Source: a bacterium (GTDB taxonomy: Bacteria; Electryoneota; Electryoneia; Electryoneales; Electryoneaceae). Taken from it: a DNA stretch of 64,000 bases. The notes beneath the pieces were generated by a model. That model worked only from the letters and a program-made list of their open reading frames with translations, ran no database searches and was not told where the DNA came from. Location: positions 5,248,001-5,312,000 of the forward strand of contig OY769902.1 of the NCBI GenBank assembly GCA_963669175.1, written 5' to 3'. This document shows, piece after piece, positions 19,751 through 58,381 of the stretch. Made by a program: the position numbers and the translations under genes. The stretch's first letter is position 1, and every line of letters begins with the position of its first letter.

Positions 19751-19798
19751 CTGAATTTCCTCCTGTTGTTCTCGTAAGATACAGGTTCTGCAACTTGA

Positions 19799-22700
19799 TC
19801 AGCGCAACAGGATCATCCTCTGAACCTGGCTTACATCACGTACCCCGTGCTGGACAAAATGTACCCGGCAGAAATACATACCGCTGGCTACAGGAAATCC
19901 ACTATCTGAAAGTCCATTCCAATGTATCGTGTGATACCCTGCTGCGACCTGTTTCTCGTGCAGGGTAGCAACTTTGCGTCCCAGGACATCATAGACAACA
20001 AGACTCAACTGCCCGGCCTCCGGCAGATCGATCCTGATATTGGCGGACTGGTTGAAAGGATTGGGATAGGGTGCATGGAATGCAAAGGATTGCGGCAATT
20101 CTTCCCTGGAATCCTCAACACCAGCATACTCAAAAGTCGTTCCGAAAACCCATTCGGTGTGCGTGCAGATTCCTTCATACTGATTCGGGCTGCAATCCCG
20201 GATGGTATCATAACTGCCCTCATTCAAACTGAAACAGGCGGCAAGATCGGGTTCGGTTCCCTCGAGGGTATGATTCGAATTCGCCAGCAGGGTTGCTTCA
20301 TCCAGGGCAACCTGCCAGAATCTGACCGCATCCATGTCGCCGACAAACCGGTTCGAATGATCAGAACTGTTACCGATTGTGACCATTTGTTGTTCATCTA
20401 TTCGCAATTCCGATCCAATGTTTCCCATTGAATACGCGACCGGCTGGGGTTCGCCATTGATGAAAAGATCAACCGTGCCTTCATCACCATCATACATCAT
20501 GGCAATATGCTGCCACCCCCAGACATGTATGGAATTGGCTGGCGTACATATCCAGTAGTTGTTGTAATCTGAAAACCGTAGCTTTGCAACGAGACATCTC
20601 GCGGGATAGTGCGAACTTGCCCGATTATGCAGGAACAGGCTGAAGCCATCCGTTTCAACAATATGGGCAAACCCCGCCGAATCCTGCGTACCATAGCTGG
20701 CGGGTGAAATCCAGGCTTCAAACGTGAGTTCATCTGCCAGGTTATCCAGTCCCGGCATATGTATATCCGCTGCCGACCATTCTTCGCCGAACTCCAACGC
20801 GCTTTCACCGTCAAACACACGAATGTAGTCCTGATATACGCGTGACTGTGTATTTGTGCCATTCGCGGCTTGCAGGGTAACAGAATATTCACCGGGAACA
20901 GTATAGGTGAACTCCGGATTCTCCAGGTATGAATCAAAGTCCCCGTCACTGGTAAAATCCCAGGCCCAATCAAGAACAGGGTAATACTCATTGCTTATTG
21001 TCGCATCCTGAAACTGAATTGTCACCGGGGCATGACCGGATCGAATATCCGATTCAATTGCGGGCCGGTTCAGCAGCGACAGACTGAAATACTCACAAAT
21101 CCTGCTTAACAGGTGATCACGTGAATTCTGACCGGTCCCCTCCAGCGCATTCAAAACCACAGACATGCAGAAAGTATGTTGCCCATAGTCACCCTCATTT
21201 TGAATAGCTACCGGTCCATATTCTGCCAGATTAAATGCGATTGCGCCATTCCTGTCGGGCGCAAGAGCGTCTATCCAATTCAGATTTACCTGATTGGATT
21301 CAAGGTAGTATAGCCCATTGCCCAATGTACCAGCAGTCCCAACAATCTCATTACGCGGTACATACTCGTTGCTGAACAAGACGGTCCTGACTCCGAAAAG
21401 ACTAAGCAGGTCAGTGTTGTAACGCTGGTCAAACCCCAGGGCGCAACCACCTTCCAGGTATACATTCCCACCATTCTCGATATAGCGCTCAACAACCAGT
21501 GACATTGCTGGCGTAAAAGCAGAATAGGTGGAACCGTCAAGCCCATAATTGCCATAACTCAGGAATACTGCATCAAAACCACGGAACGTGCTTGGGAAGA
21601 TTTCGGCGTAAACCACATCCAGTCCCTGAGATTCAAGGAATTCCGTGATAAACTGTCCGCTGAAATTCAGCCCATCGGGGTCGCCATCAAATACAAATAC
21701 ATCCCCGGCGCCTGCCGGAAACATGATCTCTGTCTCCGTATCGAAAACAACCGGGAAATCCGCTTCAATTTCCAGGTTGATTCTTGCTAAATGATAGTCT
21801 GCATCCTCGTCCACAGTTAGGCAGAATGCGTCCTCCAGAATGAAGGTACCCTCACCGGGCATTACAAACGCACAGGTGTCGTCAACAAGGTGAATGCTTT
21901 CATCGGCAGTACTGATCCGCAGCAGGGCATTCCCGGGGGCGATTTCATGAGTAAGTTCCATCAATTCAATGCTGAAATAGATATTCTCATACGGTTCATG
22001 AACACCTGCCATACGGGGCTGAATGACATTGTAATGCAGAATAACATCACGTTCAAAAGATGGGTTTTCTTCATCAAGGCAGTTGAATGCATTTATCCGG
22101 CCAGTCCCCAGTTGATTCTCCATGCCAGGATTTAAACGAGAGATATCCTCCGTCGTGCCAAGTACCTGGTTGATCAGTTCTTCACGCTCCCAATCCGGGT
22201 GATATGACTTCAGCAATCCGAACAACCCCGCAACCACTGGGGAAGCCATGGACGTACCACACATCCTTGAATACGAGTTTGTACCTGCTGTGCTCAGAAT
22301 ACCGGAATCAGCAAAGTGATCGCCACCCGGCGCGCTGACATCCACCAATGTACCGTAAGATGAATAATCAGCCATGACATTACCATAATTAACCGATGCG
22401 ACAGATACTACACAGGGATAACAAGCTGGATAGGAAGGAGTATCTGAGGCGCTGTTGCCGGCGGCAGCCACAACAACAATCCCCTGGCTGGCAGCATATT
22501 GCATGATTTCTTCTCCGCCGCGAAGATACATGGAGCTGCCCCAACTGCAGTTGATTATATCCACACCAAGGTTGATCATGTAAACTACACCATCAAACGT
22601 ATTGTATGCCGAAGTGCCTGCATAGTCGGAATGACTTGTGGCAACGACATTGACATTCCATGAAATACTGGCAATCCCGAATCCATTATTGGTGCCACCT

Positions 22701-23497
22701 GCTGAGAGTCCGCTCACATGTGTGCCATGGCTGGTTATACTCACATCATCTGCGATATTGTCCTCTTCCCCTTCAGCGTTATAAAAGTTCCAGCCGCAGA
22801 AATCGTCAATGAAACCATTTTGGTCATCATCAATCCCGTTTACATCATCAGGATCAAAACTCCATCCATTCCCCTCCCGATACCACGTAACGCCGTCGCC
22901 GTCGATATCTTCGCCAAGGTTATTCCACATGTTGGCAGCCAAGTCATCGTGATCCCAGGCAATCCCGGTATCAACAACTCCAATCAGAATCGTGCTGTCA
23001 CCACCTTCACCGTGGTGGATATCCCAGGCCTCACTGGCATCAATCTGCCGGAGATGTTGCATCACGTGATACGTGGTGTCATTGGGCACTTCAAAACACT
23101 CGCAGATCACATCCGGTTCCGCCCAGGTGATCGCCGGATGGGCTTCCAGAACTTTTGTAGCAGTCCTTACATCCAGGTTTTCCGGAAAAACAAGCAGGTA
23201 TATTCGTGACAGGTCTGGAACGGCAGGATCTTCAGGGGGCTTTATAAAAGGGTATTTTCTCTCTATTCGACTGGCATGTAATCGATCGAAACGCTCCTGC
23301 AGCGAAGGAATGCTGCATGTGATCTTCCCCTCCTGATCTTCAATCAGAGGAACATCCGCAGCCAGGCGAAATAGTAGCCTTCCAGGTCGAATTAAAGAGG
23401 AGTCATCCGCGTCTACAAGAGGAACAAAGGCAAGGAGTACTAACATCCCAAGGCAGGACACGACAGAGGAGTACCGTACACGCATCCAACATCTCAT
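19799..23497 (-). CDS. Secreted S8 serine peptidase, tandem paralog of 16055-19750
   Basis: DTG, HGTHVSG, GTSMASP; same domain order and length. Confidence 0.9.
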   Translation of the reverse strand: MRCWMRVRYSSVVSCLGMLVLLAFVPLVDADDSSLIRPGRLLFRLAADVPLIEDQEGKITCSIPSLQERFDRLHASRIERKYPFIKPPEDPAVPDLSRIYLLVFPENLDVRTATKVLEAHPAITWAEPDVICECFEVPNDTTYHVMQHLRQIDASEAWDIHHGEGGDSTILIGVVDTGIAWDHDDLAANMWNNLGEDIDGDGVTWYREGNGWSFDPDDVNGIDDDQNGFIDDFCGWNFYNAEGEEDNIADDVSITSHGTHVSGLSAGGTNNGFGIASISWNVNVVATSHSDYAGTSAYNTFDGVVYMINLGVDIINCSWGSSMYLRGGEEIMQYAASQGIVVVAAAGNSASDTPSYPACYPCVVSVASVNYGNVMADYSSYGTLVDVSAPGGDHFADSGILSTAGTNSYSRMCGTSMASPVVAGLFGLLKSYHPDWEREELINQVLGTTEDISRLNPGMENQLGTGRINAFNCLDEENPSFERDVILHYNVIQPRMAGVHEPYENIYFSIELMELTHEIAPGNALLRISTADESIHLVDDTCAFVMPGEGTFILEDAFCLTVDEDADYHLARINLEIEADFPVVFDTETEIMFPAGAGDVFVFDGDPDGLNFSGQFITEFLESQGLDVVYAEIFPSTFRGFDAVFLSYGNYGLDGSTYSAFTPAMSLVVERYIENGGNVYLEGGCALGFDQRYNTDLLSLFGVRTVLFSNEYVPRNEIVGTAGTLGNGLYYLESNQVNLNWIDALAPDRNGAIAFNLAEYGPVAIQNEGDYGQHTFCMSVVLNALEGTGQNSRDHLLSRICEYFSLSLLNRPAIESDIRSGHAPVTIQFQDATISNEYYPVLDWAWDFTSDGDFDSYLENPEFTYTVPGEYSVTLQAANGTNTQSRVYQDYIRVFDGESALEFGEEWSAADIHMPGLDNLADELTFEAWISPASYGTQDSAGFAHIVETDGFSLFLHNRASSHYPARCLVAKLRFSDYNNYWICTPANSIHVWGWQHIAMMYDGDEGTVDLFINGEPQPVAYSMGNIGSELRIDEQQMVTIGNSSDHSNRFVGDMDAVRFWQVALDEATLLANSNHTLEGTEPDLAACFSLNEGSYDTIRDCSPNQYEGICTHTEWVFGTTFEYAGVEDSREELPQSFAFHAPYPNPFNQSANIRIDLPEAGQLSLVVYDVLGRKVATLHEKQVAAGYHTIHWNGLSDSGFPVASGMYFCRVHFVQHGVRDVSQVQRMILLR

Positions 23498-46596: not shown

Positions 46597-49500
46597 ATGC
46601 GCAACCCGGGAGGGGATTTGCGGTTTGTAGCTTTGTTCACGTTGATCATGATGGCGTTTTCTATTCATACCGGCTCGGCAGCCGAAGACGATCTATCCTA
46701 TGACCTCAACTACCTGGACCAGATGGGCATCACCATGGAACCCGGTTCAGGACGCCCTTACATCTATTCCGGGCGCGGTTCCTCCTTTTTTTACGGTTCT
46801 ACCCGCACCTTCACCGAAGAAGGGTGGATGGGTTTCCACTGGGACCGTCGCAAGCTCTGGGACGACTGGATGGTCGTGGTTGATGGCGATCCGTTGGACC
46901 GAAACCTCGCCACAGTGACAGTCTACCCGCACCAAGTCGTGTTCAACTGGCCCGAGGGGCATGAACTGAGCATCCGTCTGCTCGGCGTGAAACGTGATGA
47001 CCTGCAATTCGTCTTCTCCACCCCGAAAGTGGACGTCGAATGCAACCTGTTCCTCATGTTCCCGCAGGGTTCGGATATCCCCGAAGCAAAGCGTGAAAAA
47101 CCTCTCCGTTTCCTGCCTGTCATGGTACCAACCGGTGAGGATACGGTCGGTGTCGCTTTCGGCAGCAAGACCACGTTCTCCGTGCGACAGATTCAACCGG
47201 TGCGGAATTCCGCCCACGGTCCCGACAGTGGGCAACTGGCCGGAAAAACCATCTTTGGTATCGGCTTCCCGGTGAACCGTTTTGAGGCGACAGTCGTCTA
47301 CGGTCAAGACCCGCTCTACCTCGAACAACGTCTGACCGATCTGTACAACCACCTTGGCGTGGAATGGCAGAACCGTCAGCATTGGCTGCTGGACGAGATC
47401 AACCGTGCCGTGTTCAAATGCTCCGACGAACGTTTCACCCTTGCGGTAAACTGGGCCAAGGTTTCGCTTGCCAGGCTGTTCTTCGAGGATGAAAAGGGCG
47501 TTTTGCTCTGGGCGGGACTGCCCTGGTTCAACAACTGCTGGGGACGTGATACGTTCATTTCCCTTCCGGGGGCGTGCCTGGTGCTGGGCAAATACGATGA
47601 CGCCAAAGCGATCCTGCAACGTTTCGCCGAATGGCAGATGCGTAATCCCAACTCCCCTGACTACGGTAAAATACCCAACCTGGTCTCCGGCGGCGAGATC
47701 ATGTACAACACCGCTGACGGCACCCCCTGGTTTGTCCGTGAGGTGTTCGAATACGGCCTCTACAGCGGTGATACCGACCTGTGGCAAGCCTATCTGCAAC
47801 CGAACACAGGGGCGGTCTGGTTGGCCAATGAGGGCACCATCGCCCATCGTCTCGATCCGCTCGGGTTCGTGGTGCATGGCGACGCCGATACATGGATGGA
47901 CGCGAAGGGCATGGACGGAGCCTGGTCACCACGCGGGAATCGTGCGGTCGAAATCCAGGCGCTATGGATTACCCAGCTCGACGTATCCATCAAAATGGCC
48001 GAAGCTTTGGGTGAATCCAACCCGGTCCCCGCCGCCACGTTGGAACGCTGGAAGCAACAACTCGAACAATCTAAAACCAGTTTCCAGTCGGAGTTTGTCA
48101 AGCAGGATCCACCCGGCCTGTATGATCACCTGAACTCGGATGGCGCCCCGGACGACAAGATCCGCCCGAACCAGCTCTTCGCCATCAGCGCGGTGTCCGA
48201 TACCCTGCTCAGTGATGAGGTAGCGGAAGCGGTAGTCAACGAGGTGCGTGAACATTGCGTCTATCCCTGGGGTGTGGCCTCACTGGCGCAGAATGATCCC
48301 GACTTCCACCCCTACCACCAGACCTGGCATTATCCCAAAGACGAAGCCTATCACAACGGGATCGTGTGGACCTGGCTGGCGGGACCGTTCATCACAGCCG
48401 CGGGAGGTTCGTGGCCGCTGACCGAGCAAATGGCGACGCAAATCCTCGACTGGGGCGCGCCGGGCACACTGAGCGAAAACCTGGCTGCGGTACCACGTGA
48501 TGGCAATGATCATCCTTATTGCAGTGGAACTGTATCCCAGACCTGGTCGCTGGCGGAATTCATCCGAAACCTGTACCAGGATTACCTGGGGGTGCGGCCT
48601 AGCTTTACTGAGTACGAGTTGATCGAAAAAGAGAAGATTCCAAGATGGATTTTGAATCCTCATGTACCTATAGCTTGGAATTCTGCACAGGTGTTAGTTC
48701 CTGTCAAGGATGCTTTTTTAAAAGCATCCTGTCATCGAGTAGATCAGAAACCGGTTGGATCGGTATTCTATAAATATGTGAATACTAGCGGAATTGCTAT
48801 TGAGAAGTTGGTTTTGCCTGTCAGAGCAATTCCCATTAAACCCATAATTCCAATAGACATTGGCCTCAAAAATCAATGGATGATAACGCCTACGGACGGT
48901 AATTGGGTAATGTATGATATGGGTGGTGATGAGTTATACCCCGGTTCGACCGACTTCCCCGCTAGTCCCGCCAATGAGGATATGACTTTCCTCGAGCCTC
49001 ACATCGCGCCGGACCTGAAATCGCTTGCTCCACCGGACTGGTACCTGATGTCGCAGGATGAGGTGACGGTGCAGCCACGCGCCAGCATCCCGGTCTGTTC
49101 GGTGGTGGACGAGACCAACGATGATCATGGCGGTTCCGGTTACACCTATCCCAAGGCGGCGGTGTTCAAGCCGGGCATCCTTGACCTGACTGGGTTCGTA
49201 GTGCGTGAGGATGGCCTGCGTATCTATTTCGAGCTGGATTTCGCGGCTCTGGTCAATCCCGGCTGGCACAAGGAGTACGGCTTCCAGCTCACCTACGCCA
49301 CCATTTGCATCCATTCCGGGACCAAGGGCGAAAAGACCCGTACCGACGTAGGACGCAATTCTGGCTGGAAGCTGGACAAGGATTTTGCGGCGGATCGGTT
49401 CATCTATGTAGGCGGCCCGATTGACGTGGAAGATGCGTCAGGAAAAATGCTGGCGCAGTATGTCCCTCGTGACGCGTCAGGACGTATTGGCGATGTGGAC

Positions 49501-49722
49501 CGGGGAATCATACGCTTTGGCATTCCGAGGCGCTTCCTGCCGGGTGATCCGTCACAATGGAAAATAACCGTACTGGTCGGTGGGCAGGATGATCATGGCG
49601 GCGCGGGAACCGGGGAGTTCCGTTCGGTGGACAAGGAAGCGTCCGAGTGGATCGGTGGCGGTGGTGGACCGGATAAACACAATGTCTACGACTGGCTCAT
49701 GATCGACCCTTTACAGGAATGA
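46597..49722 (+). CDS. Amylo-alpha-1,6-glucosidase (GH133-like) with C-terminal glucodextranase/DOMON-like domain
   Basis: AGLPWF..WGRDTFISLPG, YNTADGTPW, TWMDAK, RPNQLFA, YHNGIVW, SQTWS; DDHGGSGYTYP...DLTGF. Confidence 0.85.
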   Translation: MRNPGGDLRFVALFTLIMMAFSIHTGSAAEDDLSYDLNYLDQMGITMEPGSGRPYIYSGRGSSFFYGSTRTFTEEGWMGFHWDRRKLWDDWMVVVDGDPLDRNLATVTVYPHQVVFNWPEGHELSIRLLGVKRDDLQFVFSTPKVDVECNLFLMFPQGSDIPEAKREKPLRFLPVMVPTGEDTVGVAFGSKTTFSVRQIQPVRNSAHGPDSGQLAGKTIFGIGFPVNRFEATVVYGQDPLYLEQRLTDLYNHLGVEWQNRQHWLLDEINRAVFKCSDERFTLAVNWAKVSLARLFFEDEKGVLLWAGLPWFNNCWGRDTFISLPGACLVLGKYDDAKAILQRFAEWQMRNPNSPDYGKIPNLVSGGEIMYNTADGTPWFVREVFEYGLYSGDTDLWQAYLQPNTGAVWLANEGTIAHRLDPLGFVVHGDADTWMDAKGMDGAWSPRGNRAVEIQALWITQLDVSIKMAEALGESNPVPAATLERWKQQLEQSKTSFQSEFVKQDPPGLYDHLNSDGAPDDKIRPNQLFAISAVSDTLLSDEVAEAVVNEVREHCVYPWGVASLAQNDPDFHPYHQTWHYPKDEAYHNGIVWTWLAGPFITAAGGSWPLTEQMATQILDWGAPGTLSENLAAVPRDGNDHPYCSGTVSQTWSLAEFIRNLYQDYLGVRPSFTEYELIEKEKIPRWILNPHVPIAWNSAQVLVPVKDAFLKASCHRVDQKPVGSVFYKYVNTSGIAIEKLVLPVRAIPIKPIIPIDIGLKNQWMITPTDGNWVMYDMGGDELYPGSTDFPASPANEDMTFLEPHIAPDLKSLAPPDWYLMSQDEVTVQPRASIPVCSVVDETNDDHGGSGYTYPKAAVFKPGILDLTGFVVREDGLRIYFELDFAALVNPGWHKEYGFQLTYATICIHSGTKGEKTRTDVGRNSGWKLDKDFAADRFIYVGGPIDVEDASGKMLAQYVPRDASGRIGDVDRGIIRFGIPRRFLPGDPSQWKITVLVGGQDDHGGAGTGEFRSVDKEASEWIGGGGGPDKHNVYDWLMIDPLQE

Positions 49723-50382
49723 TTCACAAGATGTACAGGATGAACTGATAATTAACAGGATGATAGGATAGTAGGATTTCAAGGATGAAAGATATTAGGG
49801 TAAAGAAAGTAGAAAAGGTAAAGACAGCAACAAATTGACAGAACTCAAATGAAAGCTATATTTATTGACACAATTCCTAATTGCTAATTAATTGAAACTG
49901 ATTCCTAATTACTAATTTGAAAGTATTAATTCCTAATTTCTAATTCTTAATTACTATAGCGGTTATCGAAAGTTTCTGCTGATTGAATAGCCGTCAGCCT
50001 GCTTCAGCAGGCTCCTCTTAGCACCCGGCTTTAGCCGGGTGAAGGGAGATATTCGAAGATATGAGCGAGCTTTAGCGTGCTTGCATGTGGCAAAGAATAC
50101 AAATCAGGAAAGCAACCTGAAGGGCGCTCGATATGTTTGATTTCTGCTACCCCCGGCTGAAGCCGGGGGCTAAGAGGAGCAGGCTAAAGCCTGCTAAACT
50201 TACAAGTTGGTAGTGTGTTAGTGGTTTCCAGAGGATTACGATTCAAGATAGCTACTGCCGTGGAACTGTTGCATTGTTATAATCACTCAGCCCTATCAAC
50301 CTGAAACAGCAAGAACCTCCAAGAAGTACTATAATTAAAGAATTTATCCTTGATATCCTTCTATCCTATTATCCTGTGAGTC
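49721..50382. repeat. AGGAT-nonamer inverted-repeat element, copy A
   Basis: Left arm 49755-49789 pairs with right arm 50343-50377 (31 of 35 positions); encloses an A-rich tract, TTCCTAA heptamers and a REP doublet. Confidence 0.85.
49996..50195. repeat. REP/REPIN-like doublet
   Basis: AGCCTGCTTCAGCAGGCTCCTCTTAGCACCCGGCTTTAGCCGGGTG is inverted relative to CCCCCGGCTGAAGCCGGGGGCTAAGAGGAGCAGGCTAAAGCCTGCT; each arm has two GC hairpins. Confidence 0.75.
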
Positions 50383-50411
50383 AAGTTGTTGAAAGTGAGA
50401 GGAATTCGGGA

Positions 50412-52637
50412 ATGCAGAGATCATTGTTTGGAATTCTTGTGTCTTTGTTGCTACTCGCGGGGTGCAGCAAAGCGCCGGTACCATACATGGACAACGGTGA
50501 GGTGGTATTCAGCTACCGTTCTGCGTCGGCGAAGACTGTCGCTTTGGCGGGAGCGTTCAACGGCTGGTCGGACAGCGCCACACCCATGACTCGCAACGAT
50601 ACCGGTCTCTGGACCGCACGTGTCGGGCTGTCGGTCGGCTACCATGAGTACCGTTTTGTGGTTGACGGCAACTGGATCGCCGACCCTGTCAATCCGGCGA
50701 CCGTGATCAACAACTACGGCGAGCCGAACAGCGTTCTCTATGTCACCCCCACCGCGACCGTCGAGCTGAAAGCCCCGAAAACCGGATCGGACGGCCTGGT
50801 CGAGATGCCCGGCGGAGAAGGTTTCCTCTATGTCAACCTGATCTGGCACCAGCATCAGCCCAACTATTACGACGCCGAAAAGGATCAGCTTATCGCGCCG
50901 TGGGTACGCACCCATACCACCAAGGATTATTACGACATGACCGCGATGCTGAAAGAGCATCCGGATATCCATGTGACCGTGAACCTGACCCCGGTTCTGA
51001 TTGAACAGATTGACCTCTACACCGACCGCCTGGGTGAGTTTTATTCCAGCAAACGTAAACGCCTTGACGCCGACAAATTCCTCGCGAAATACAAGGGCCA
51101 CACCGACCCCTGGATTGACCTGATGTTAACCGATACGGAGGAGTTCGGCCCGGAAGAGGATCAGTACCTGGCACGTAACGAGTGGTCCTGCTTCAGTGTG
51201 GCCCGCACCATCATGAACCGTTTCCCGGAATATGTGGCGTTACGGGAAAAAGACCCCGAAGATTTTACCGTGCAGGACAAGCGTGACCTGAAATGTTTCT
51301 TCTGGCTGGCGCTCTTCGACCCGGATTTCCTGCGTGGCCCGGTGCAGTTGTCGGAAAGCACCACGGTGGATTTGAGCGATTTGGTCACCGAGGGGCCGGG
51401 GGAAAGCTGGACTGTGGGACGTCACTTCTCTGAAGATGATGCGCTTCGACTGGTGTCGGACTTCTACCTGATCGCCTATCGTTTGAAATACCTCCACAAG
51501 GAGATGATGTACAACCCGGCCAGGCATACCGGTCAGGTTGAGATGATTACCACACCCTTCGCGCACCCGATTCTGCCGTTGATCTATGACCTGCACGCCG
51601 GGAAAAGCCCGAACGACCAGGCTCCGGACAGTGTACAGTTCTCCCGGCCGCATGACGCGCAGTGGCATGTCACCCAGGCCAACCAGAACTATTTCGACTG
51701 GTACGGCACCTATCCCAGGGGGATGTGGCCTGCCGAGGGTTCGGTTTCCGCGGATGTGCTCAAGTTGTTTACCCATGCGAATATAGAATGGATTGCTACC
51801 GGCGATGGCGTATTAGCCAAGTCGTTGCCGGAAGGGTTAAAGGCCACTACCCCGTACAAGTTGAAAGACGGTGAAGGCGGTGAAATCGCGATCTTCTTCC
51901 GTGATACCCATCTGTCCGACCTGATCGGGTTCCGTTACCAGCGCTGGAGCCCGGAGCAGGCCTCGGAAGACCTGATTCGTCAGATTCTGGCCCGCGCCCC
52001 GGAAGCGAAAACTGATACGGCCTGCATCACCATCCTGCTGGATGGCGAAAACGCCTGGGAATGGTACGAGCAGGACGCTGACGCTAAGCAGTTCCTGAAC
52101 CAGGTATACACCAAGCTGGCGGAAAAGCAGAACGAAGGACGTCTACTAACGGTCACCCCCATCGAATACCTTGAAGGCAACCCGGAGCGTGGGGTTCCTC
52201 CCCACCCAATTGCGAATCTTCCCGAAATTGAATCCCTCTGGCCGGGATCGTGGATTTATGGGGATTTCAGTACGTGGGTAGGGGAAGATGAAGAGAATCG
52301 TGCCTGGTGGTGGCTAAACAAGGTGCGCCAGGATTACGCTGCCGCGACTGAAGGCTTGTCCCGACAGGAAGAACTGGCCCATGATGACGCCCTGCGGGCG
52401 GCGTGGGCCGCCATGGCCGCAGCGGAAGGGTCCGACTGGTTCTGGTGGTATGGCACCGATCAGAACACCGGGGAAGGGGATTCGCGTTGGGATCAGCTTT
52501 ATCGCGCGCATCTTGAAAGTGTTTATCGTATCTTGCAGGACGATGGCATCGAGATTGAAATGCCCGAGATACCGTCACTTATGGATACCGGGTCTGACGC
52601 GAGTAGTGAAGGCGGGGCGATGGCCCGCGGGGAGTAG
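50412..52637 (+). CDS. GH57 amylopullulanase-like lipoprotein with N-terminal CBM48
   Basis: Lipobox LAGC; LAGAFNGW/YRFVVDGNW; WHQHQP, HPILPL, GMWPAEGSVS, LDGENAWE, AEGSDWFWW. Confidence 0.9.
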   Translation: MQRSLFGILVSLLLLAGCSKAPVPYMDNGEVVFSYRSASAKTVALAGAFNGWSDSATPMTRNDTGLWTARVGLSVGYHEYRFVVDGNWIADPVNPATVINNYGEPNSVLYVTPTATVELKAPKTGSDGLVEMPGGEGFLYVNLIWHQHQPNYYDAEKDQLIAPWVRTHTTKDYYDMTAMLKEHPDIHVTVNLTPVLIEQIDLYTDRLGEFYSSKRKRLDADKFLAKYKGHTDPWIDLMLTDTEEFGPEEDQYLARNEWSCFSVARTIMNRFPEYVALREKDPEDFTVQDKRDLKCFFWLALFDPDFLRGPVQLSESTTVDLSDLVTEGPGESWTVGRHFSEDDALRLVSDFYLIAYRLKYLHKEMMYNPARHTGQVEMITTPFAHPILPLIYDLHAGKSPNDQAPDSVQFSRPHDAQWHVTQANQNYFDWYGTYPRGMWPAEGSVSADVLKLFTHANIEWIATGDGVLAKSLPEGLKATTPYKLKDGEGGEIAIFFRDTHLSDLIGFRYQRWSPEQASEDLIRQILARAPEAKTDTACITILLDGENAWEWYEQDADAKQFLNQVYTKLAEKQNEGRLLTVTPIEYLEGNPERGVPPHPIANLPEIESLWPGSWIYGDFSTWVGEDEENRAWWWLNKVRQDYAAATEGLSRQEELAHDDALRAAWAAMAAAEGSDWFWWYGTDQNTGEGDSRWDQLYRAHLESVYRILQDDGIEIEMPEIPSLMDTGSDASSEGGAMARGE

Positions 52638-52640
52638 TTC

Positions 52641-52962
52641 GATTCACAATTCGATTCACAAGATGGACAGGATGAAAACACAATTAACAGGATGGATTTT
52701 ATTGTATTTACAGGATGCAAAGGATGATTAGGATATCAAGGATGAAAGAAGCAAATAAGGCAAAAAAGATAAAGGAAATAGAAAAAGCGAAAAAAATTCT
52801 TTTTAGATCTAATAACATCTTAATTTGTTAATAAAATTCCTAATTTCTAATTCCTAATTATTAATTAAGCTGTTATCCTTAATATCCTATCATCCTATTA
52901 TCCTGTGAGTTAAAAAGAATCATCCTGAATATTTTAGTTATATCTTGTATATCCTGTAAATC
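52641..52962. repeat. AGGAT-nonamer inverted-repeat element, copy B (no cargo ORF)
   Basis: GATTCACAAGATGGACAGGATG...CAAGGATGAAA left; TTATCCTTAATATCCTATCATCCTATTATCCTGTGAGT...ATCCTGTAAATC right. Confidence 0.85.
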
Positions 52963-52981
52963 CCAGCGTGAGGGGAAAACG

Positions 52982-55201
52982 ATGCGGATTTGGATCGCAT
53001 GTTTGTTACTGGTCAGTATCCTGGTCAGTCCGGGGTTCAGCGAGGAGATGAACATCTCCTTCTGGCATCAGCTCAACTATGCCGAGCGGGTGGTGCTGGA
53101 TGAGCTGATCGAGGAATACGAGGCGACACATTCGGGGATCACGGTCACTCCGATTTACCGTGAGACGGAAGAACTGCGTTCCGCGTACCAGAACTCAGCG
53201 CTTGCGGGCACCGGGCCGGAACTGGTGCATGGCCCCTCGGACCAGATCGGTCCCTTTGCCACCATGAGCATTGTACGTCCGATGGAGACCCTCCTGTCCC
53301 AGGCCGAGCTGGACCGCTTAAACCCGCAGGCGCTGGTCTGGTTCAAGGGCGAGCACGACAGCACCGAACATCTCTACCAGGTCGCGGACCGCCTGGGCAA
53401 TCACCTCACCCTGATCTACAACAAGAAGTACATCACTGAACCACCAACGACCACCGACGACCTGATCAGGATCGGGCAAGAGCAGACAGTTGATATCAAC
53501 GGCGACGGTAAAATCGACCGTTTCGGCCTGGTCTGGAACTTCACCGAACCCTATTTCTTCATTCCCTGGCTGTCTGGGTTCGGCGGCTGGGTGATGGATG
53601 ATGAATACCGTCCTACGCTCGATACCGAAGCCAATCGCAACGCCCTGCAATTCATCATTGACCTGCGTGACAAGTACAAAATCACCCCGCAAAACGCCGA
53701 CTACGAAACCGCGCACAACCTGTTCCTGGAAGAGATGTCGACCATGATCATCAATGGCGACTGGTCCTGGGGCACGTATATCGATAACGGTATCGACATC
53801 GGGGTGGCACGCATCCCGATGGTATCCGAAACCGGGCTGTGGGCCGCGCCGATGGTATCGCCACGCGGGTACAGCATCAATGTGAACATCGAAGAGGCCA
53901 AGCTCGAACCGACACTGGAACTGCTGCGATTCTTCCTGAGCGATGAAGCCCAGCTAAGGATGGCGTTGGCGACCAACATCACCCCCACCAGCAAGACGGT
54001 ATTCGACACGCCGGAACTACAGGCCAACCCGATCATGCAGGCCAGCCTGAGCGAGATCGAGGTTTGCAAACCAATGCCGGTCGCCCCGGAACTGCGTGCG
54101 ATCTGGGACTCCATGCGTCCCTTTTACCAGGCCGCGCTCGGGGGCACCTCCACCGCTGCCGAATCTGCTGCGGGGATGCAGAAAGAAGCGATACGCAAAA
54201 TCCGTGAGATGAACGAGATCACCCAACCGGCCGCCTATGTCGTGATCATGAAGATCTTCGTGTTGTTGGCGCTGGTGGTGGGGATCTGGTTCACACGTTC
54301 AAGCTGGGCAGAGCTGATTCGTGACCTGCGCAAACGTCCGTTCATCTACTGGATGGTCATGCCGGCGTTCATTGTCATCGTGTTGGTGGTGGTTTATCCG
54401 TTTATCTATAACGTAATCCTGTCCGTCTCGAACATGGGCCTGCGGAACTTCGCCAACTGGGAAATAGTCGGCTTGCAGAATTACGGGCAGGTATTCCTTC
54501 ACCCGGATTTTTATACGGTCCTGTTCAAGACGATTGTCTGGACTGTGGTCAATGTGGGATTTCATGTGATCCTGGGCGTGTTCCTGGCCCTGCTGATGAA
54601 CCGTGTCCTGCCGGGCAAAGGCGTGATTCGTACCCTGCTGATCCTGCCCTGGGCGGTGCCGCAGTACATCACCGCGCTGACCTGGCGTGGGATGTTCAAC
54701 CAGGAATACGGCGCGGTGAACCTGATCATCGCCAAGTACCTGCACATGCCGATTGTCAACTGGCTGGGGTCGCCCTTTGAAGCGTTCCTCGCCTGTATCA
54801 TCACCAATGTCTGGCTGGGCTTCCCCTTCATGATGATCGTGGCGCTGGGCGGGTTGCAGTCGATTCCGTACCAGTTGTACGAAGCGGCGGACATTGACGG
54901 CGGCGGATGGTACACCAAGCTGACCAAGATCACGCTACCCCTGCTCAAACCGGTGATGACCCCGGCGATGGTGCTGGGCATGGTCTGGACCTTCAACCAG
55001 CTCAATGTTATCTGGCTGGTATCGAACGCGGGCGAGCCCTCGGACAAGACGCATATCCTGGTGTCGTTCGTATATAAGAGCGCTTTTAACCTGTACCGGT
55101 ATTCCTATGCCGCTGCGATGAGCATGGTGATCTTTGGTATCCTGCTGGCGTTCGGGATCTTCTTTATCAAACGGTCCAAAGCGACTGAAGCGGTTTACTA
55201 G
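52982..55201 (+). CDS. Maltose/maltodextrin ABC transporter, substrate-binding protein fused to MalF-type permease
   Basis: Signal peptide, SBP domain (LIYNKK, MIINGDW), then TM helices with LQSIPYQLYEAADIDG EAA loop. Confidence 0.85.
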   Translation: MRIWIACLLLVSILVSPGFSEEMNISFWHQLNYAERVVLDELIEEYEATHSGITVTPIYRETEELRSAYQNSALAGTGPELVHGPSDQIGPFATMSIVRPMETLLSQAELDRLNPQALVWFKGEHDSTEHLYQVADRLGNHLTLIYNKKYITEPPTTTDDLIRIGQEQTVDINGDGKIDRFGLVWNFTEPYFFIPWLSGFGGWVMDDEYRPTLDTEANRNALQFIIDLRDKYKITPQNADYETAHNLFLEEMSTMIINGDWSWGTYIDNGIDIGVARIPMVSETGLWAAPMVSPRGYSINVNIEEAKLEPTLELLRFFLSDEAQLRMALATNITPTSKTVFDTPELQANPIMQASLSEIEVCKPMPVAPELRAIWDSMRPFYQAALGGTSTAAESAAGMQKEAIRKIREMNEITQPAAYVVIMKIFVLLALVVGIWFTRSSWAELIRDLRKRPFIYWMVMPAFIVIVLVVVYPFIYNVILSVSNMGLRNFANWEIVGLQNYGQVFLHPDFYTVLFKTIVWTVVNVGFHVILGVFLALLMNRVLPGKGVIRTLLILPWAVPQYITALTWRGMFNQEYGAVNLIIAKYLHMPIVNWLGSPFEAFLACIITNVWLGFPFMMIVALGGLQSIPYQLYEAADIDGGGWYTKLTKITLPLLKPVMTPAMVLGMVWTFNQLNVIWLVSNAGEPSDKTHILVSFVYKSAFNLYRYSYAAAMSMVIFGILLAFGIFFIKRSKATEAVY

Positions 55202-55205
55202 GCAG

Positions 55206-56316
55206 AATTCACAGGATGAACAGGATAAAAAACAATTAACAGGATGATAGGATAGAAGGATATCAAGGATGAAATTTAATATTGACAAAAGCACAAAAAA
55301 CAGCATTAGAGATATAATCGACAATAGCGACAAGTCACTAATGAAATATTATCTACCTTTATATAACTGTATAATTAGATCATTTGAATATAATTTTTCA
55401 CAAGGAAAAGATATAGAGAAAACAAGGATATTAACAATATTCTTTTCTCAAGTGTTAAATATTTTACCTGGATTATTAACATCAATCAACAATAGATACA
55501 TTTACGCATCAAATATATTCGTAAGATTATTACAAGAACGAATGTATGAAGGTAGATATATTATTCTAGTTGATAATGCATATTATGATTTTATGCTTAT
55601 AGAGTGGATGCAAAGAGCATATTTATATAAATCGAATCGACAATATGTAAGTTGGTTATATGGATCTGATAAAGGAACAGAACACATATTTACTCAGCAG
55701 GAAATAGATGCCAGTAATAAAAAAATAGAAAAGGCTTTATTAAATGATGGCCTGACTTACTTGAGAAATCACCCAGAGATCAGCAATGACACTATTAGTT
55801 CTATAAATCAATATCATGATCTACTTTGTCATCCAAAGATAAAGGAAATGAAAAGTTCATGGTATAAATCTCGCAAGAGAAATATCAACAACTTTGATGA
55901 TTTAAAAAGTTTTGTTATCAAGAATTTAGAGAATGATAAAATTATGTTTAGCGAATATGCTTTTGATTTTCCAGGAAACAGAGAAAAATCCAGTGCTGTC
56001 ATACACAGTAGCTGGTATAGATTAAACCACATGATTAATATTAATTATAGAGATGACTATAACGATGTTATAGAATTTGTAATAGACAATAACGAAGATG
56101 AGTCTTTAAAGATATTAAAAAATTGTCTTATTTACATTTATGGTATCTACAGGAATATGATAAACTATATCCCGACAAAAAAAATGAATATCGAAATTGA
56201 TAAAAATATTACTGATATATACGGTGTTAATATTACCAAGAATTCTTAACTTTCTATTATTTTATTATCTTGTTAATCATGTATTTATCTTGTATATCTT
56301 GTTAATCCTTGTGAGT
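55206..56316. repeat. AGGAT-nonamer inverted-repeat element, copy C, enclosing a cargo gene
   Basis: Left arm 55206-55274; more degenerate right arm ATCTTGT/ATCCTTGTGAGT at ~56265-56316. Confidence 0.8.
55269..56249 (+). CDS. AT-rich orphan, weakly DUF5677/HEPN-like helical protein
   Basis: 326-aa ORF, very AT-rich; FVRLLQE and REKSSAVIH motifs; family call is tentative. Confidence 0.55.
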   Translation: MKFNIDKSTKNSIRDIIDNSDKSLMKYYLPLYNCIIRSFEYNFSQGKDIEKTRILTIFFSQVLNILPGLLTSINNRYIYASNIFVRLLQERMYEGRYIILVDNAYYDFMLIEWMQRAYLYKSNRQYVSWLYGSDKGTEHIFTQQEIDASNKKIEKALLNDGLTYLRNHPEISNDTISSINQYHDLLCHPKIKEMKSSWYKSRKRNINNFDDLKSFVIKNLENDKIMFSEYAFDFPGNREKSSAVIHSSWYRLNHMININYRDDYNDVIEFVIDNNEDESLKILKNCLIYIYGIYRNMINYIPTKKMNIEIDKNITDIYGVNITKNS

Positions 56317-56335
56317 AAAGTTGCAGGAGTGATAG

Positions 56336-57169
56336 ATGCAGAAAGACAAGCTGTGGGTTCGGGTGATCATATACGCGATCCTGTTCGTGTTCATCGTGAT
56401 ATCGGTGTACCCGGTGATCCGTGTGCTCTCGATTTCGCTACGTCCGGGCGACCGTCTGTTGAGCACCTCGCTGGCGATCATCCCCGATGACGCGACCCTG
56501 TCGAATTTCGTGGTGCTGTTCACCGAACGTCCGTTCCTGCGTTGGGTGTGGAACAGTACGCTCGTCACCACTGCTGTAACCCTTCTCGGGGTGGCGTTGG
56601 CGTCCACCAGCGGCTACATCATGAGCCGGTATAAGTTCGTTGGACGCACGGCCGCGATGACCGCGATCCTCACCACGCAGATGTTCCCTGCGACCATGCT
56701 GCTGCTGCCGATGTACATCATTATCAGCAAGATGGGCCTGCTGAACAGCTATATCGGGCTCATTGTGGTGTACAGCGCAACCGCTCTGCCCTTCTGTGTC
56801 TGGACCATGAAAGGGTATTACGATACCATCCCCTATTCGCTGGAAGAAGCGGCGATGATTGACGGCTGCAATCGTTTTGAATCGTTTTACAAGGTCGTGC
56901 TGCCGCTGGTCAGCCCGGCGCTGGTAATTACCGGCCTGTTCAGCTTCATCTCGAGCTGGTCGGAATACCTGGTCGCGGCTCAGATCCTGCAGGACCCGAA
57001 GATGTATACGCTCCCCATCGGGCTGAAGCAGTTCCAGCAGAACATGAGCACCGACTGGGGGCTGTACTCGGCGGGGGCGCTGGTGGTGTCCATCCCGGTG
57101 ATCGTCCTGTTCATGATCGCGAATAGATGGCTGGTTAGTGGACTTACTCTCGGTGGAGTTAAGGAATGA
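56336..57169 (+). CDS. malG: Sugar ABC transporter permease (MalG-type)
   Basis: WVWNS, TQMFPA, DTIPYSLEEAAMIDG, LVSGLTLGGVKE. Confidence 0.85.
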   Translation: MQKDKLWVRVIIYAILFVFIVISVYPVIRVLSISLRPGDRLLSTSLAIIPDDATLSNFVVLFTERPFLRWVWNSTLVTTAVTLLGVALASTSGYIMSRYKFVGRTAAMTAILTTQMFPATMLLLPMYIIISKMGLLNSYIGLIVVYSATALPFCVWTMKGYYDTIPYSLEEAAMIDGCNRFESFYKVVLPLVSPALVITGLFSFISSWSEYLVAAQILQDPKMYTLPIGLKQFQQNMSTDWGLYSAGALVVSIPVIVLFMIANRWLVSGLTLGGVKE

Positions 57170-57468
57170 TTCACAAGATGAACAGGATAAAATAACAGGA
57201 TGAACAAGATTTGACTCACAGGATGGTAAGATAGAAGGATATCAAGGATGAAAGAAGTAAAAAAGGTAAAAAACGTAAAGAAGGTAAAGAAAGCCAGGAT
57301 AATATCTAAAAATATTCTTGAGAAATATAACTCCTTATTTCTAATTTCTAATTCCTAATTCCTAATTCCTAATTAAGAAGTTATCCTTATCATCCTATTA
57401 TCCTATCATCCTGTCAGAAGGTAGTTTATCTTGTTAATCAGCAGTTAATCCTGTATATCCTGTAAATC
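57168..57468. repeat. AGGAT-nonamer inverted-repeat element, copy D
   Basis: Outer GATTCACAAGATG...ATCCTGTAAATC and inner GACTCACAGGATG...ATCCTGTC pairs; (TTYCTAA)5 at ~57338-57374. Confidence 0.85.
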
Positions 57469-57475
57469 GAGAGAG

Positions 57476-58120
57476 GTGAGAGTGGGAAAGAAGTTGTGTC
57501 CGAAGGTGATTCTTGAGGGAACACGGTTGACATTCAAGACCGAGATTGCTTTTGCCCTCAACGAGCACCCTCGTGTGGTCGGCCCCAAGAAATACCGTTA
57601 TCACAGCCCGGTAATTTCTGCGGAATGGTGCGGGTTCACCAATTTCCCGTGGGGACGTGGCCCGATCAACTTCGATCCCGAGACCGAAGAAGCGCGAGCG
57701 ATGGACGTCTACCGTACCTGGGCGCACCTGATCGAGCTGCAACGTTATTATTCGTGGATCGTTGACCGTTTCCATATCTCGACCAGGCTTTACCAGCGTC
57801 ACGTGCACGGCAAGGAATATGATTTCGGCTGGCTGGAAGAACGTCTGCACAACCTCGGCTTTCACCTGGTCGTCTGCCATCGTTCTTCGGATTCGTTCAA
57901 GGCCGCACGCAAGGAACGGTTGAAAGTATCGGGCAAACCATCTCAGTACGATAACTTGCAGGCGTTTATCGACGAGCAGAGCGAATACATTGAAGAGGGG
58001 CGGAAATCCCTGTTGCCCTGCCTGGAACTGGATGTGTCGGACAATTCGGTTGCGAACGCTGCGGACCGTATCGCAGACTGGCTGGGGCAAAATGGCGGCC
58101 TGTACGCGAAAGAGCCATGA
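57476..58120 (+). CDS. Hypothetical protein, degenerate nucleoside-monophosphate-kinase-like P-loop fold
   Basis: KVILEGTRLTFKTE and IVDRFHIS resemble the thymidylate kinase P-loop and DR motifs; host-like codon use. Confidence 0.5.
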   Translation: MRVGKKLCPKVILEGTRLTFKTEIAFALNEHPRVVGPKKYRYHSPVISAEWCGFTNFPWGRGPINFDPETEEARAMDVYRTWAHLIELQRYYSWIVDRFHISTRLYQRHVHGKEYDFGWLEERLHNLGFHLVVCHRSSDSFKAARKERLKVSGKPSQYDNLQAFIDEQSEYIEEGRKSLLPCLELDVSDNSVANAADRIADWLGQNGGLYAKEP

Positions 58121-58126
58121 TTTTTT

Positions 58127-58355
58127 CTCACAGGATACTAGGATATAAAGATATCAAGGATAAAGAATTATATTTAAGCTTAAAAGAAATATGTTCATAC
58201 TGTAATATATCTATCAACTATTAATTCTTAATTCTTAATTCTTAATTTATTTTCATCATCCTTTTATCCTAATATCCTGTTAGGCAATAGTAGTTAAGTG
58301 TGGCGACAGCCGAGAATAGAGTGTATCTTTCACAATCCTGTACATCCTGTAAACC
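58127..58355. repeat. AGGAT-nonamer inverted-repeat element, copy E
   Basis: CTCACAGGATACTAGGATATAAAGATATCAAGGATAAA left; (TTCTTAA)3; ATCCTTTTATCCTAATATCCTGT...ATCCTGTACATCCTGTAAAC right. Confidence 0.8.
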
Positions 58356-58381
58356 GGATGTTTGAACTTGCGGAGAGAACG

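Follow-up and report, generated by a model that had tools for sequence, protein, structure and literature searches.

Modular intergenic repeats and miniature inverted-repeat transposable elements (MITEs), among them REP/BIME in the E. coli malE-malF spacer, Correia in Neisseria and BOX in pneumococcus, are co-transcribed with genes. A gene enclosed by a stem is known from the intervening sequences (IVSs) of rRNA: the helix-45 IVS of the Coxiella burnetii 23S rRNA carries an open reading frame (ORF) for S23p and is excised by RNase III, and S23p is reported not to be synthesised in vivo (Warrier et al. 2016, PMC4990558). Here, we describe positions 55206-56316 of a 64,000-nt stretch of bacterial DNA (the window; G000:C1:5248001-5312000, from genome G000, a single contig of 5.45 Mb with 50% GC), in which an AT-rich ORF of 326 codons (ORF326, product P0001) lies between malE/F and malG and is flanked by repeat arms, which consist of NNNAGGAT octamers in inverted arrays and an additional outer pair of arms. 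Positions without a genome prefix are positions within the window. This arrangement is probably an IVS-like cassette whose arms would pair in the mRNA.

As read here, the cassette resembles an rRNA IVS in being a selfish insert whose ORF is the loop of a stem made from inverted flanks inside a host transcript, and G000 has both RNase III and three array-flanked genes of PF05635, the IVS protein family. It differs in its location in an mRNA spacer between protein genes, outside any rRNA helix, in arms that are arrays of an 8-nt unit, and in its cargo, a 326-aa DUF5677/HEPN-like protein here versus a four-helix protein of ~100 aa there; RNase III cutting is, in the present case, a prediction. 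Like REP/BIME, Correia and BOX, the element is short, dispersed, hairpin-forming and modular, sits after gene ends or in operon spacers and is confined to a narrow taxon, and it shares terminal inverted repeats and many dispersed copies with MITEs. Unlike REP/BIME, Correia and BOX, which enclose no protein gene and are single palindromes, one copy here and a few sister cassettes enclose an ORF, and the arms are tandem octamer arrays. On our best reading, the gene-in-stem layout is thus already known from rRNA IVSs, and a DUF5677/HEPN-like cargo in such a cassette would be new.

ORF326 begins and ends within the repeat arms

The sequence at 55250-55277 reads ...GATAGAAGGATATCAAGG-ATG-AAA-TTT, and the ATG at 55269, in the last octamer of the left arm, opens a frame of 326 codons with 27% GC. 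A first-pass annotation of this DNA had singled out a very AT-rich 326-aa ORF opened by an ATG in the repeat arm, and sequence, composition and stop counts agree with it. Position 55269 is the first ATG, GTG or TTG downstream of an in-frame TAG at 55248. With the base composition of ORF326 (A.42, T.31, G.15, C.12), the probability of a stop is 0.094 per codon and that of 326 open codons ~1.2e-14; the other five frames of the stretch contain 17-43 stops. Residues 2-7 of P0001 (KFNIDK) align with RLSIEK of P0002, the homolog described below. Because openness by chance is so improbable (~1e-14), a homolog exists and the N-terminal residues align, we conclude that ORF326 is a real gene, and the sequence comparison favours a start at 55269 over one at M25 (55341).

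Just one Shine-Dalgarno (SD)-like sequence is present, AAGGA at 55256-55260; it lies in the third left-arm octamer, 8 nt 5' of the ATG, and matches the 3' end of the G000 16S rRNA (...CACCTCCTTTCT). The start codon (55269-55271) and the second codon of ORF326 are likewise arm sequence, and the similarity of copy C, the cassette, to the other copies A, B and D of the element runs to ...CAAGGATGAAA (through ATGAAA) and then ends. Both start signals therefore lie inside the inner left arm, as had been proposed. At the other end, the stop codon (56247-56249) falls within the first decayed octamer of the right arm. The earlier statement that the ORF stops about 15 nt before the right arm holds for the conserved outer arm, which begins at 56265, 15 nt beyond the stop, but not for the decayed inner arm, which starts inside the last ORF326 codons (GAATTCTTAACTTTCTATTATTTTATTATCTTGT aligned with TTATCCTTATCATCCTATTATCCTATCATCCTGT). 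The decay has turned ATCCT octamers into ATTCT, TTTCT, ATTTT and ATCTT, nearly all changes being C to T. Since start and stop both sit inside arm octamers, ORF326 fills the loop exactly. We considered whether the C-to-T changes preserve pairing as G-U, and rejected this as not distinctive, there being 10 G-U pairs in copy C versus 8 each in B and D.

The arms belong to a genus-specific repeat element

The genes of this sugar-transport operon are arranged on the plus strand in the order GH57, malE/F, ORF326, malG, X214, malK, and every one of the five operon spacers holds a copy (A to E) of one modular, genus-specific element; only copy C encloses a gene. A full ORF-less copy, as in B and D, starts with the outer left arm GATTCACAAGATGAACAGGAT..., followed by the four octamers that form the inner left arm (CACAGGAT AATAGGAT AGAAGGAT ATCAAGGAT) and then G/A AA. 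Its core consists of a 9-mer array (GTAAAGAAG) and a 7-mer array (TTCCTAA), after which come an inner right arm of ATCCT octamers ending ...ATCCTGTGAG and the outer right arm ...TATATCCTGTAAATC.

The inner left arm of copy C has 2 mismatches from a 33-nt genome consensus. Searching both strands of G000 with this consensus gave 89 arms with at most 7 mismatches, compared with 0 for three shuffled consensuses. Arrays of at least three AGGAT/ATCCT units number 198; five control 5-mers gave 0-56 per strand, the highest count coming from GATGA, which overlaps the repeat unit. The family thus has about 90-200 copies in the genome. By a crude ORF-based gene call, 167 of the 198 arrays are intergenic, with flanking genes co-directional in 98 cases, convergent in 53 and divergent in 16, as expected if such elements are tolerated in operon spacers and in transcribed 3' regions. 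A three-octamer pattern occurs 85 times in G000, 49 times in G001 (same genus) and 0-1 times in 14 other genomes of the family, and of 185,579 species genomes screened with a stricter arm pattern, only one other assembly contained it. The AGGAT octamer family is genus-specific.

Further clusters of arms lie at G000:C1:382224-389848, 548727-559570 and 1771544-1775085 with 1.4-3.8 kb spacing, which suggests several operons with most spacers colonised in the manner of the mal operon. Element A additionally contains a nested GC-rich, hairpin-rich repeat of ~200 nt (49995-50195; inverted repeat I3, 82% complementary) with ~90-110 blastn matches across G000. An Rfam scan of 49000-59000 at E <= 1 returned a single sub-threshold match, to Acido-Lenti-1 (22.9 bits against a gathering threshold of 37), at 50150-50185, in the nested repeat and outside the arms. 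A CsrA-binding or sponge role for the A(N)GGA-rich arms was rejected: PF02599 is absent from G000, with the control search positive in 3 of 14 genomes.

The arms are predicted to pair in the transcript

Cofolding of the two arms of copy C as RNA gave -53.9 kcal/mol and 55 inter-arm pairs (36 AU, 10 GU and 9 GC); the corresponding values for D and B are -65.2 and -74.8 kcal/mol. The predicted pairing joins 55207-55270 with 56242-56306 and so includes the SD sequence as well as the A and T of the ATG; for the decayed inner right arm, the predicted partner is 55250-55270. The ORF326 flanks have an inverted-repeat score of 33, whereas shuffled sequences average 16.9 and reach at most 26 (z 6.9). 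With DNA parameters, the same arms fold at only -22.6 kcal/mol, because 10 of the pairs are G-U. Terminator-like sites in the operon number 4 versus 9.4 expected, with 0 in the spacers. RNase III is encoded at G000:C1:2475289-2475681.

The arm is not a general start module

In the first-pass annotation, the arm was viewed as a portable translation-start module for captured ORFs. The observation from which this view started is correct: the AAGGATGAAA arm end is also present in A (49781), B (52738) and D (57244), where it opens just 17, 29 and 36 codons, respectively; copy E carries ATA at 58156 where the other copies have ATG. The generalisation fails. Of 89 arm ends in G000, 52 are ATA, 28 ATG and 9 other triplets. 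Among the 28 ATG arms, 26 open 2-36 codons, one opens 93 codons running through further AGGAT arrays, and one opens ORF326, the only gene. In 14 arms from the sister genome, no frame exceeds 39 codons. A conserved lysine-rich peptide made from the arm ATG of A, B and D was also discarded, since these frames traverse the 9-mer and 7-mer arrays, and ATA or an early stop is found in many of the copies across G000.

Two other G000 cargo genes between AGGAT-family arms start at their own ATG, 10 and ~45 nt further in. One is a PDDEXK_3 (GxxExxY-type) gene (G000:C1:3093208-3093603; Pfam E 1.1e-40) in a cassette spanning G000:C1:3093166-3093642. Its arm ATG opens a 3-codon frame (ATG-AAA-AAC-TAA) whose TAA overlaps the gene start, 10 nt past the arm, as TAATG, raising the possibility of termination-reinitiation coupling. 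The other is a 90-aa AT-rich ORF of GC 0.32 without a Pfam family (2714761-2715033, in cassette G000:C1:2714684-2715113), which is enclosed by outer-type arms and starts from a GGGAG and ATG of its own ~45 nt past the arm. We conclude that the start signals of ORF326 come from the arm, that another arm may provide a coupling mini-frame in one further case, and that the repeat family as a whole does not behave in this way. Thus, of the initial interpretation, the arm-borne start signals and the DUF5677/HEPN-likeness treated below stand, and the start-module rule does not.

Three PF05635 genes (23S-rRNA-IVS-type, four-helix) in G000 are each flanked by arrays of 9-mer or 7-mer units, two of the flank pairs being inverted and one direct; the same units form the core of the ORF-less elements. 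In the riboflavin-operon four-helix cassette, an AT-rich gene stands between inverted short-repeat arrays amid its operon partners. Of 132 AT-rich ORFs of G000 (GC <= 0.38, 70-450 aa), 10 have a flank inverted-repeat score of at least 30, among them ORF326, the genes for PDDEXK_3 and for one four-helix protein, and the 90-aa ORF. A 162-aa AT-rich ORF (G000:C1:5087366-5087854) has an HUH-like 'HIHLL' motif and resembles, by eye, a REP-associated Y1 transposase; it is flanked by inverted GC-rich repeats (GTGTGTGACCTGACAC...) of a family different from the AGGAT arms.

The ORF326 product is DUF5677-like

An exhaustive HMMER scan of 1.84 billion representative sequences identified one true relative of P0001, namely P0002 (325 aa, E 7.7e-15). 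The two proteins are 28% identical over residues 38-300 (BLASTP) and have the blocks EGRYIILVD, HPKIK and GIYRNMI-Y in common. A match to P0003 (1,309 aa, repetitive, E 2.6e-6) was dismissed as low complexity. Word-index searches with the single sequence or a two-sequence profile returned P0001 and P0002 only, and locus scans of genome, metagenome and viral contigs gave no confirmed relative. Nothing usable was obtained for P0001 from PADLOC, PHROGs or NCBIfam, and sequence searches of the PDB with both profiles gave no match.

The proposal that the cargo is DUF5677/HEPN-like gained support from several sides. In the ESM-Atlas, a tool that provides leads only, all 30 of 30 feature matches of P0001 were DUF5677 (top score 0.95, 208 of 256 features shared), and P0002 scored 16.8 bits (E 0.0076) against PF18928 (DUF5677), below the curated cut-off of 27.1 bits. 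Other genomes in the phylum provided 17 DUF5677 genes for comparison. When these are aligned alone, the only conserved columns are the R and E of RSxxE and the H of SxxxH. In a joint MAFFT alignment of 18 sequences (P0001, P0002 and 16 of the DUF5677 proteins, all passing the Pfam cut-off, with L018 left out), the P0001 residues R86 and H246 occupy invariant columns, and E90 occupies a near-invariant (>=90%) one. P0001 thus resembles PF18928 proteins in length and in having its R-x3-E and S-x3-H on the only conserved columns of the family, as well as in being AT-rich relative to its genome, like 15 of the 17 family genes (GC <= 0.40), which are mostly AT-rich islets among housekeeping genes.

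AlphaFold2 with the joint alignment produced an all-alpha model with a pLDDT of 63 and a pTM of 0.54; from the single sequence, pLDDT was 34 and the model unusable. A wide VIA-align search with the former model was led by HEPN domains, with 2hsb_A at Z 10.3 (rmsd 3.0, 123 of 126 residues aligned), followed by 4nqf_B (9.9), 3o10_A (8.6), 7ae2_A (8.3), 5yep_B (8.0), 1ufb_A (7.8) and 1wol_A (7.6); the matches at Z 7-9 include sacsin HEPN (8.6), HEPN toxins and Csm6, helical bundles being able, by the tool's own note, to attain Z 8-10 by chance. Taken together, the alignment and the model indicate that P0001 is probably a very divergent DUF5677-type protein with a HEPN-like fold. A nucleic-acid-directed role is our leading guess for its activity.

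The repeat arms, in contrast to the conserved residues, are not shared with the family. A check for homologs between similar arms had been suggested; 16 of the 17 DUF5677 genes have no flanking inverted repeat, and the exception carries a GC-rich, non-array repeat. Five of the 17 loci adjoin a TIR (two loci), ParE, PIN or nucleotidyltransferase gene.

The malE/F-malG junction varies among relatives

The operon is conserved in the family. The first-pass annotation took malF and malG to be normally adjacent; this applies to some relatives, with spacers of 12 nt (G013) and 21 nt (G025), and not to others (G011, 183 nt; G001, 218; G008, 300; G014, 437), and its 'malF' is a fused malE/malF, the fusion of solute-binding protein and permease being kept across the family relatives. 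The suggested comparison of the junction in relatives bore out the status of ORF326 as an extra gene, in that it is absent there.

In the 218-nt spacer of G001, whose MalG is 94% identical, lies an element that lacks an ORF and has the usual core of 9-mer and 7-mer arrays; the arms of this element differ in sequence from those of G000. In the malG-X214 spacer of G001 (L011 3466-3655), the element is oriented opposite to copy D of G000, reflecting either an independent insertion or an inversion. A ~95%-identical strain (31 differences in 633 nt of malG) is represented in public metagenome run X3, from another study. Its contig joins 55274 to 56267 and so skips 992 nt, corresponding to ORF326 from codon 3 plus 17 nt, as given in an alignment table that lists what lies between as not known. 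In a sister genus, G014 (L012 5721-6157) and G011 (L016 5992-6174) have an analogous element with ACGGAAT-type unit arms in the same spacer, and their congener G013 has a 12-nt spacer (L013 5865-5876) without any element; this filled/empty pair could define insertion boundaries. The 300-nt spacer of G008 (L014 6732-7031) is GC-rich with an apparent small ORF of another kind (MAVYMVSCDSD...), a further sign of a junction that tolerates insertions. ORF326 is therefore a lineage-specific gain or loss, absent from the closest sampled relatives, at a repeatedly colonised spacer. The AT-rich gene was probably acquired horizontally.

Alternative explanations of the cassette

The layout of the locus, the existence of a real gene with its family resemblance, the restriction of that gene to one lineage and the genus-specific repeat family are matters of observation, and they are best accounted for, in our judgement and with moderate confidence, by an IVS-like, stem-bounded gene cassette in the mRNA spacer between malE/F and malG, carrying a new cargo. 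The cassette would be co-transcribed with the operon, as suggested by the lack of terminator-like sites in any spacer. In the transcript, a stem of ~55 bp would form between the arms and hide the SD sequence and the start codon; by analogy with rRNA IVSs, RNase III may cut this stem, which would separate the malE/F message from that of malG and restrict ORF326 translation.

A number of results weigh against this reading. P0001 has no Pfam match even at E up to 10, thus lying below any reportable threshold, and a PF18928 scan of the whole of G000 misses it (0 matches among 6 candidates). With hhalign, R86-x3-E90 registers on the RSxxE helix alone, at E 0.0024 and a probability of only 12%; a Foldseek search of the PDB found nothing at E <= 0.001 (best E 0.71), and the VIA-align scores overlap the chance range noted above. 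The catalytic motif of HEPN proteins is R-x4-6-H. P0001 lacks it, having R238-x7-H246 with the family-invariant Arg 160 residues upstream, and the DUF5677 alignment itself has no Arg conserved 4-6 residues before the invariant H. The contig that encodes P0002 is 1,730 nt long and its genomic context could not be read, while the X3 joint comes from an alignment table; in addition, the 16 of 17 DUF5677 genes without inverted repeats imply that the cassette layout is not a property of the protein family. The Coxiella report indicates that an ORF enclosed by a stem may be intact and yet not expressed, and stem formation, RNase III cutting, transcription and translation are predictions for the present locus.

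It is possible, at somewhat less than an even chance, that the gene arrived second: an AT-rich gene would have entered or replaced the 9-mer/7-mer core of a resident ORF-less element, leaving the arms as bystanders and the ATG as an accident. The ORF-less element with the usual core in the G001 spacer fits such a history, as do the X3 strain, which has arms without ORF326, the ORF-less state of four of the five operon copies and nearly all genome copies, and the 26 of 28 ATG-ending arms that open just 2-36 codons. However, the elements of G001 and G000 may not be orthologous, because their arm sequences differ, and ORF326 occupies the loop with nucleotide precision, both its start and its stop falling within arm octamers. 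Moreover, six AT-rich genes of four unrelated groups are bracketed by arrays in G000 (ORF326, the PDDEXK_3 gene, the three PF05635 genes and the 90-aa ORF), five of them by inverted arrays, a recurrence that argues for a shared way of arising. Unlikely, in our estimation, is a purely DNA-level MITE, in which the arrays would bind a transposase supplied in trans, ORF326 would be the passenger of a non-autonomous transposon and RNA structure would have no role. Terminal inverted repeats, many dispersed copies restricted to the genus, insertion polymorphism between close relatives and the opposite orientation of the malG-X214 copy in G001 are what such a transposon would produce, but no target-site duplication is visible at copies B, C and D, and the arms of copy C fold far less well as DNA than as RNA. 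No transposase was found between the arm pairs examined, a systematic search for one not having been made, and the only transposase-like gene flanked by inverted repeats is the Y1/RAYT-like ORF with its different, GC-rich repeat.

Two further explanations concern the gene rather than its arms. ORF326 may be a selfish gene of recent acquisition that is not made in the host and will decay. The predicted pairing of SD and ATG, the decayed right arm, the absence of ORF326 from close relatives and the case of S23p in Coxiella point in this direction, yet 326 intact codons at 27% GC with the three family-conserved residues kept, and an AAGGA at a workable 8-nt spacing that matches the 16S 3' end, make it doubtful. 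We regard it as improbable that ORF326 is a silenced toxin or defence gene, that is, a HEPN-type RNase whose translation is blocked by the stem and released when transcription or RNA turnover is disturbed, for instance by phage attack. Such a role would suit the HEPN-like model fold with its conserved R/E/H, the predicted burial of the SD and start codon, and the AT-rich islets of the phylum's DUF5677 genes, with their TIR, ParE, PIN or nucleotidyltransferase neighbours at five of 17 loci; against it stand the missing R-x4-6-H motif, the negative PADLOC scan and the absence of an antitoxin candidate. A DUF5677 ORF tested against six phages is also not among the five positives given in the available part of that study (PMC12632615).

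The stem-bounded cassette can be extended to a broader and more tentative proposal, which we think rather unlikely as it stands. Cassettes of this type would lodge genes in operon spacers irrespective of cargo, with arms drawn from the tandem repeats of the lineage itself (the AGGAT octamer here and the ACGGAAT unit in the sister genus, at the same malE/F-malG spacer) that supply the SD sequence, the start and even the stop. The cargo would comprise unrelated nucleic-acid-directed proteins (the four-helix IVS protein, a PD-(D/E)XK nuclease and a HEPN-like DUF5677 relative), and the ORF-less copies would act as RNase III-dependent mRNA punctuation. If so, these cassettes would form an undescribed class of element acting at both the DNA and the RNA level. 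For the stem-bounded cassette itself, the consequence would be that the gene-in-stem layout of rRNA IVSs extends beyond one or two families of small cargo and can accommodate a 1-kb gene of a third, HEPN-like family. A genus-specific octamer repeat that brackets genes and, free of cargo, fills the mal spacers would then be a place to test mRNA punctuation. The three states of the junction in close relatives (ORF present, arms only, empty) would form a natural series for the rise and decay of a cassette, and P0001 would offer a fold-level lead towards HEPN for DUF5677, a family with no known function.

Features of the operon and of the window

Coordinates are collected in Table 1. GC falls from ~0.57 in the operon genes to 0.29-0.36 across 55001-56500, and SD-like sequences precede the neighbouring operon genes as well. 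A promoter scan gave 24 sites compared with 13.4 +/- 3.5 expected, all of them consensus matches only; copies A, B and C have weak promoter-like matches in their outer left arms, that of copy C (55208-55236) matching at 9 of 12 positions.

Table 1. Genes and repeat-element features of the mal operon region (window positions)
Feature	Position	Strand	Basis or remark
Element A, ORF-less, 5' of GH57	49715-50384	+	nested GC-rich repeat inside
CBM48-GH57 glycosidase	50376-52637	+	
Element B, ORF-less, GH57-malE/F spacer	52647-52975	+	arms, 9-mer and 7-mer arrays; whole-element RNA fold -87.6 kcal/mol
Fused solute-binding protein and permease, MalE/MalF-like, 739 aa	52982-55201	+	Pfam SBP_bac_8 E 4.6e-27, BPD_transp_1 E 1.9e-12
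Element C, holds ORF326, malE/F-malG spacer	55206-56316	+	
Outer left arm of copy C (GAATTCACAGGATGAACAGGATAAAA)	55206-55231	+	repeat family D4, 6 copies in window; aligns with copies A, B, D
Inner left arm of copy C, four AGGAT octamers	55234-55276	+	repeat family D5, 90% identical to copy A
ORF326 (P0001), AT-rich; probable divergent DUF5677-like, HEPN-like all-alpha protein	55269-56249	+	326 aa
Decayed inner right arm of copy C	56242-56272	+	alignment with inner right arms of copies B, D, E
Outer right arm of copy C (TTATCTTGTTAATCATGTATTTATCTTGTATATCTTGTTAATCCTTGTGAG)	56265-56313	+	repeat families D11 and D15; pairs with outer left arm in predicted RNA cofold
MalG-like permease	56336-57169	+	Pfam BPD_transp_1 E 4e-19; own SD GCAGGAG at 56322-56328
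Element D, ORF-less, malG-X214 spacer	57162-57470	+	whole-element RNA fold -76.6 kcal/mol
X214, 214-aa protein	57476-58120	+	conserved; without Pfam family
Element E, ORF-less, X214-malK spacer	58120-58360	+	arm ends ATA rather than ATG
MalK-like ATPase	58298-59449	+	

X214 also lacks an NCBIfam family and is kept between malG and malK across the family, with 60-87% identity in 5 relatives. Elsewhere in the window, at 16116-22868, repeat families D2, D6, D7, D9 and D17 recur with a spacing of ~3744 nt and 71-78% identity, which indicates two tandem paralogous large genes.

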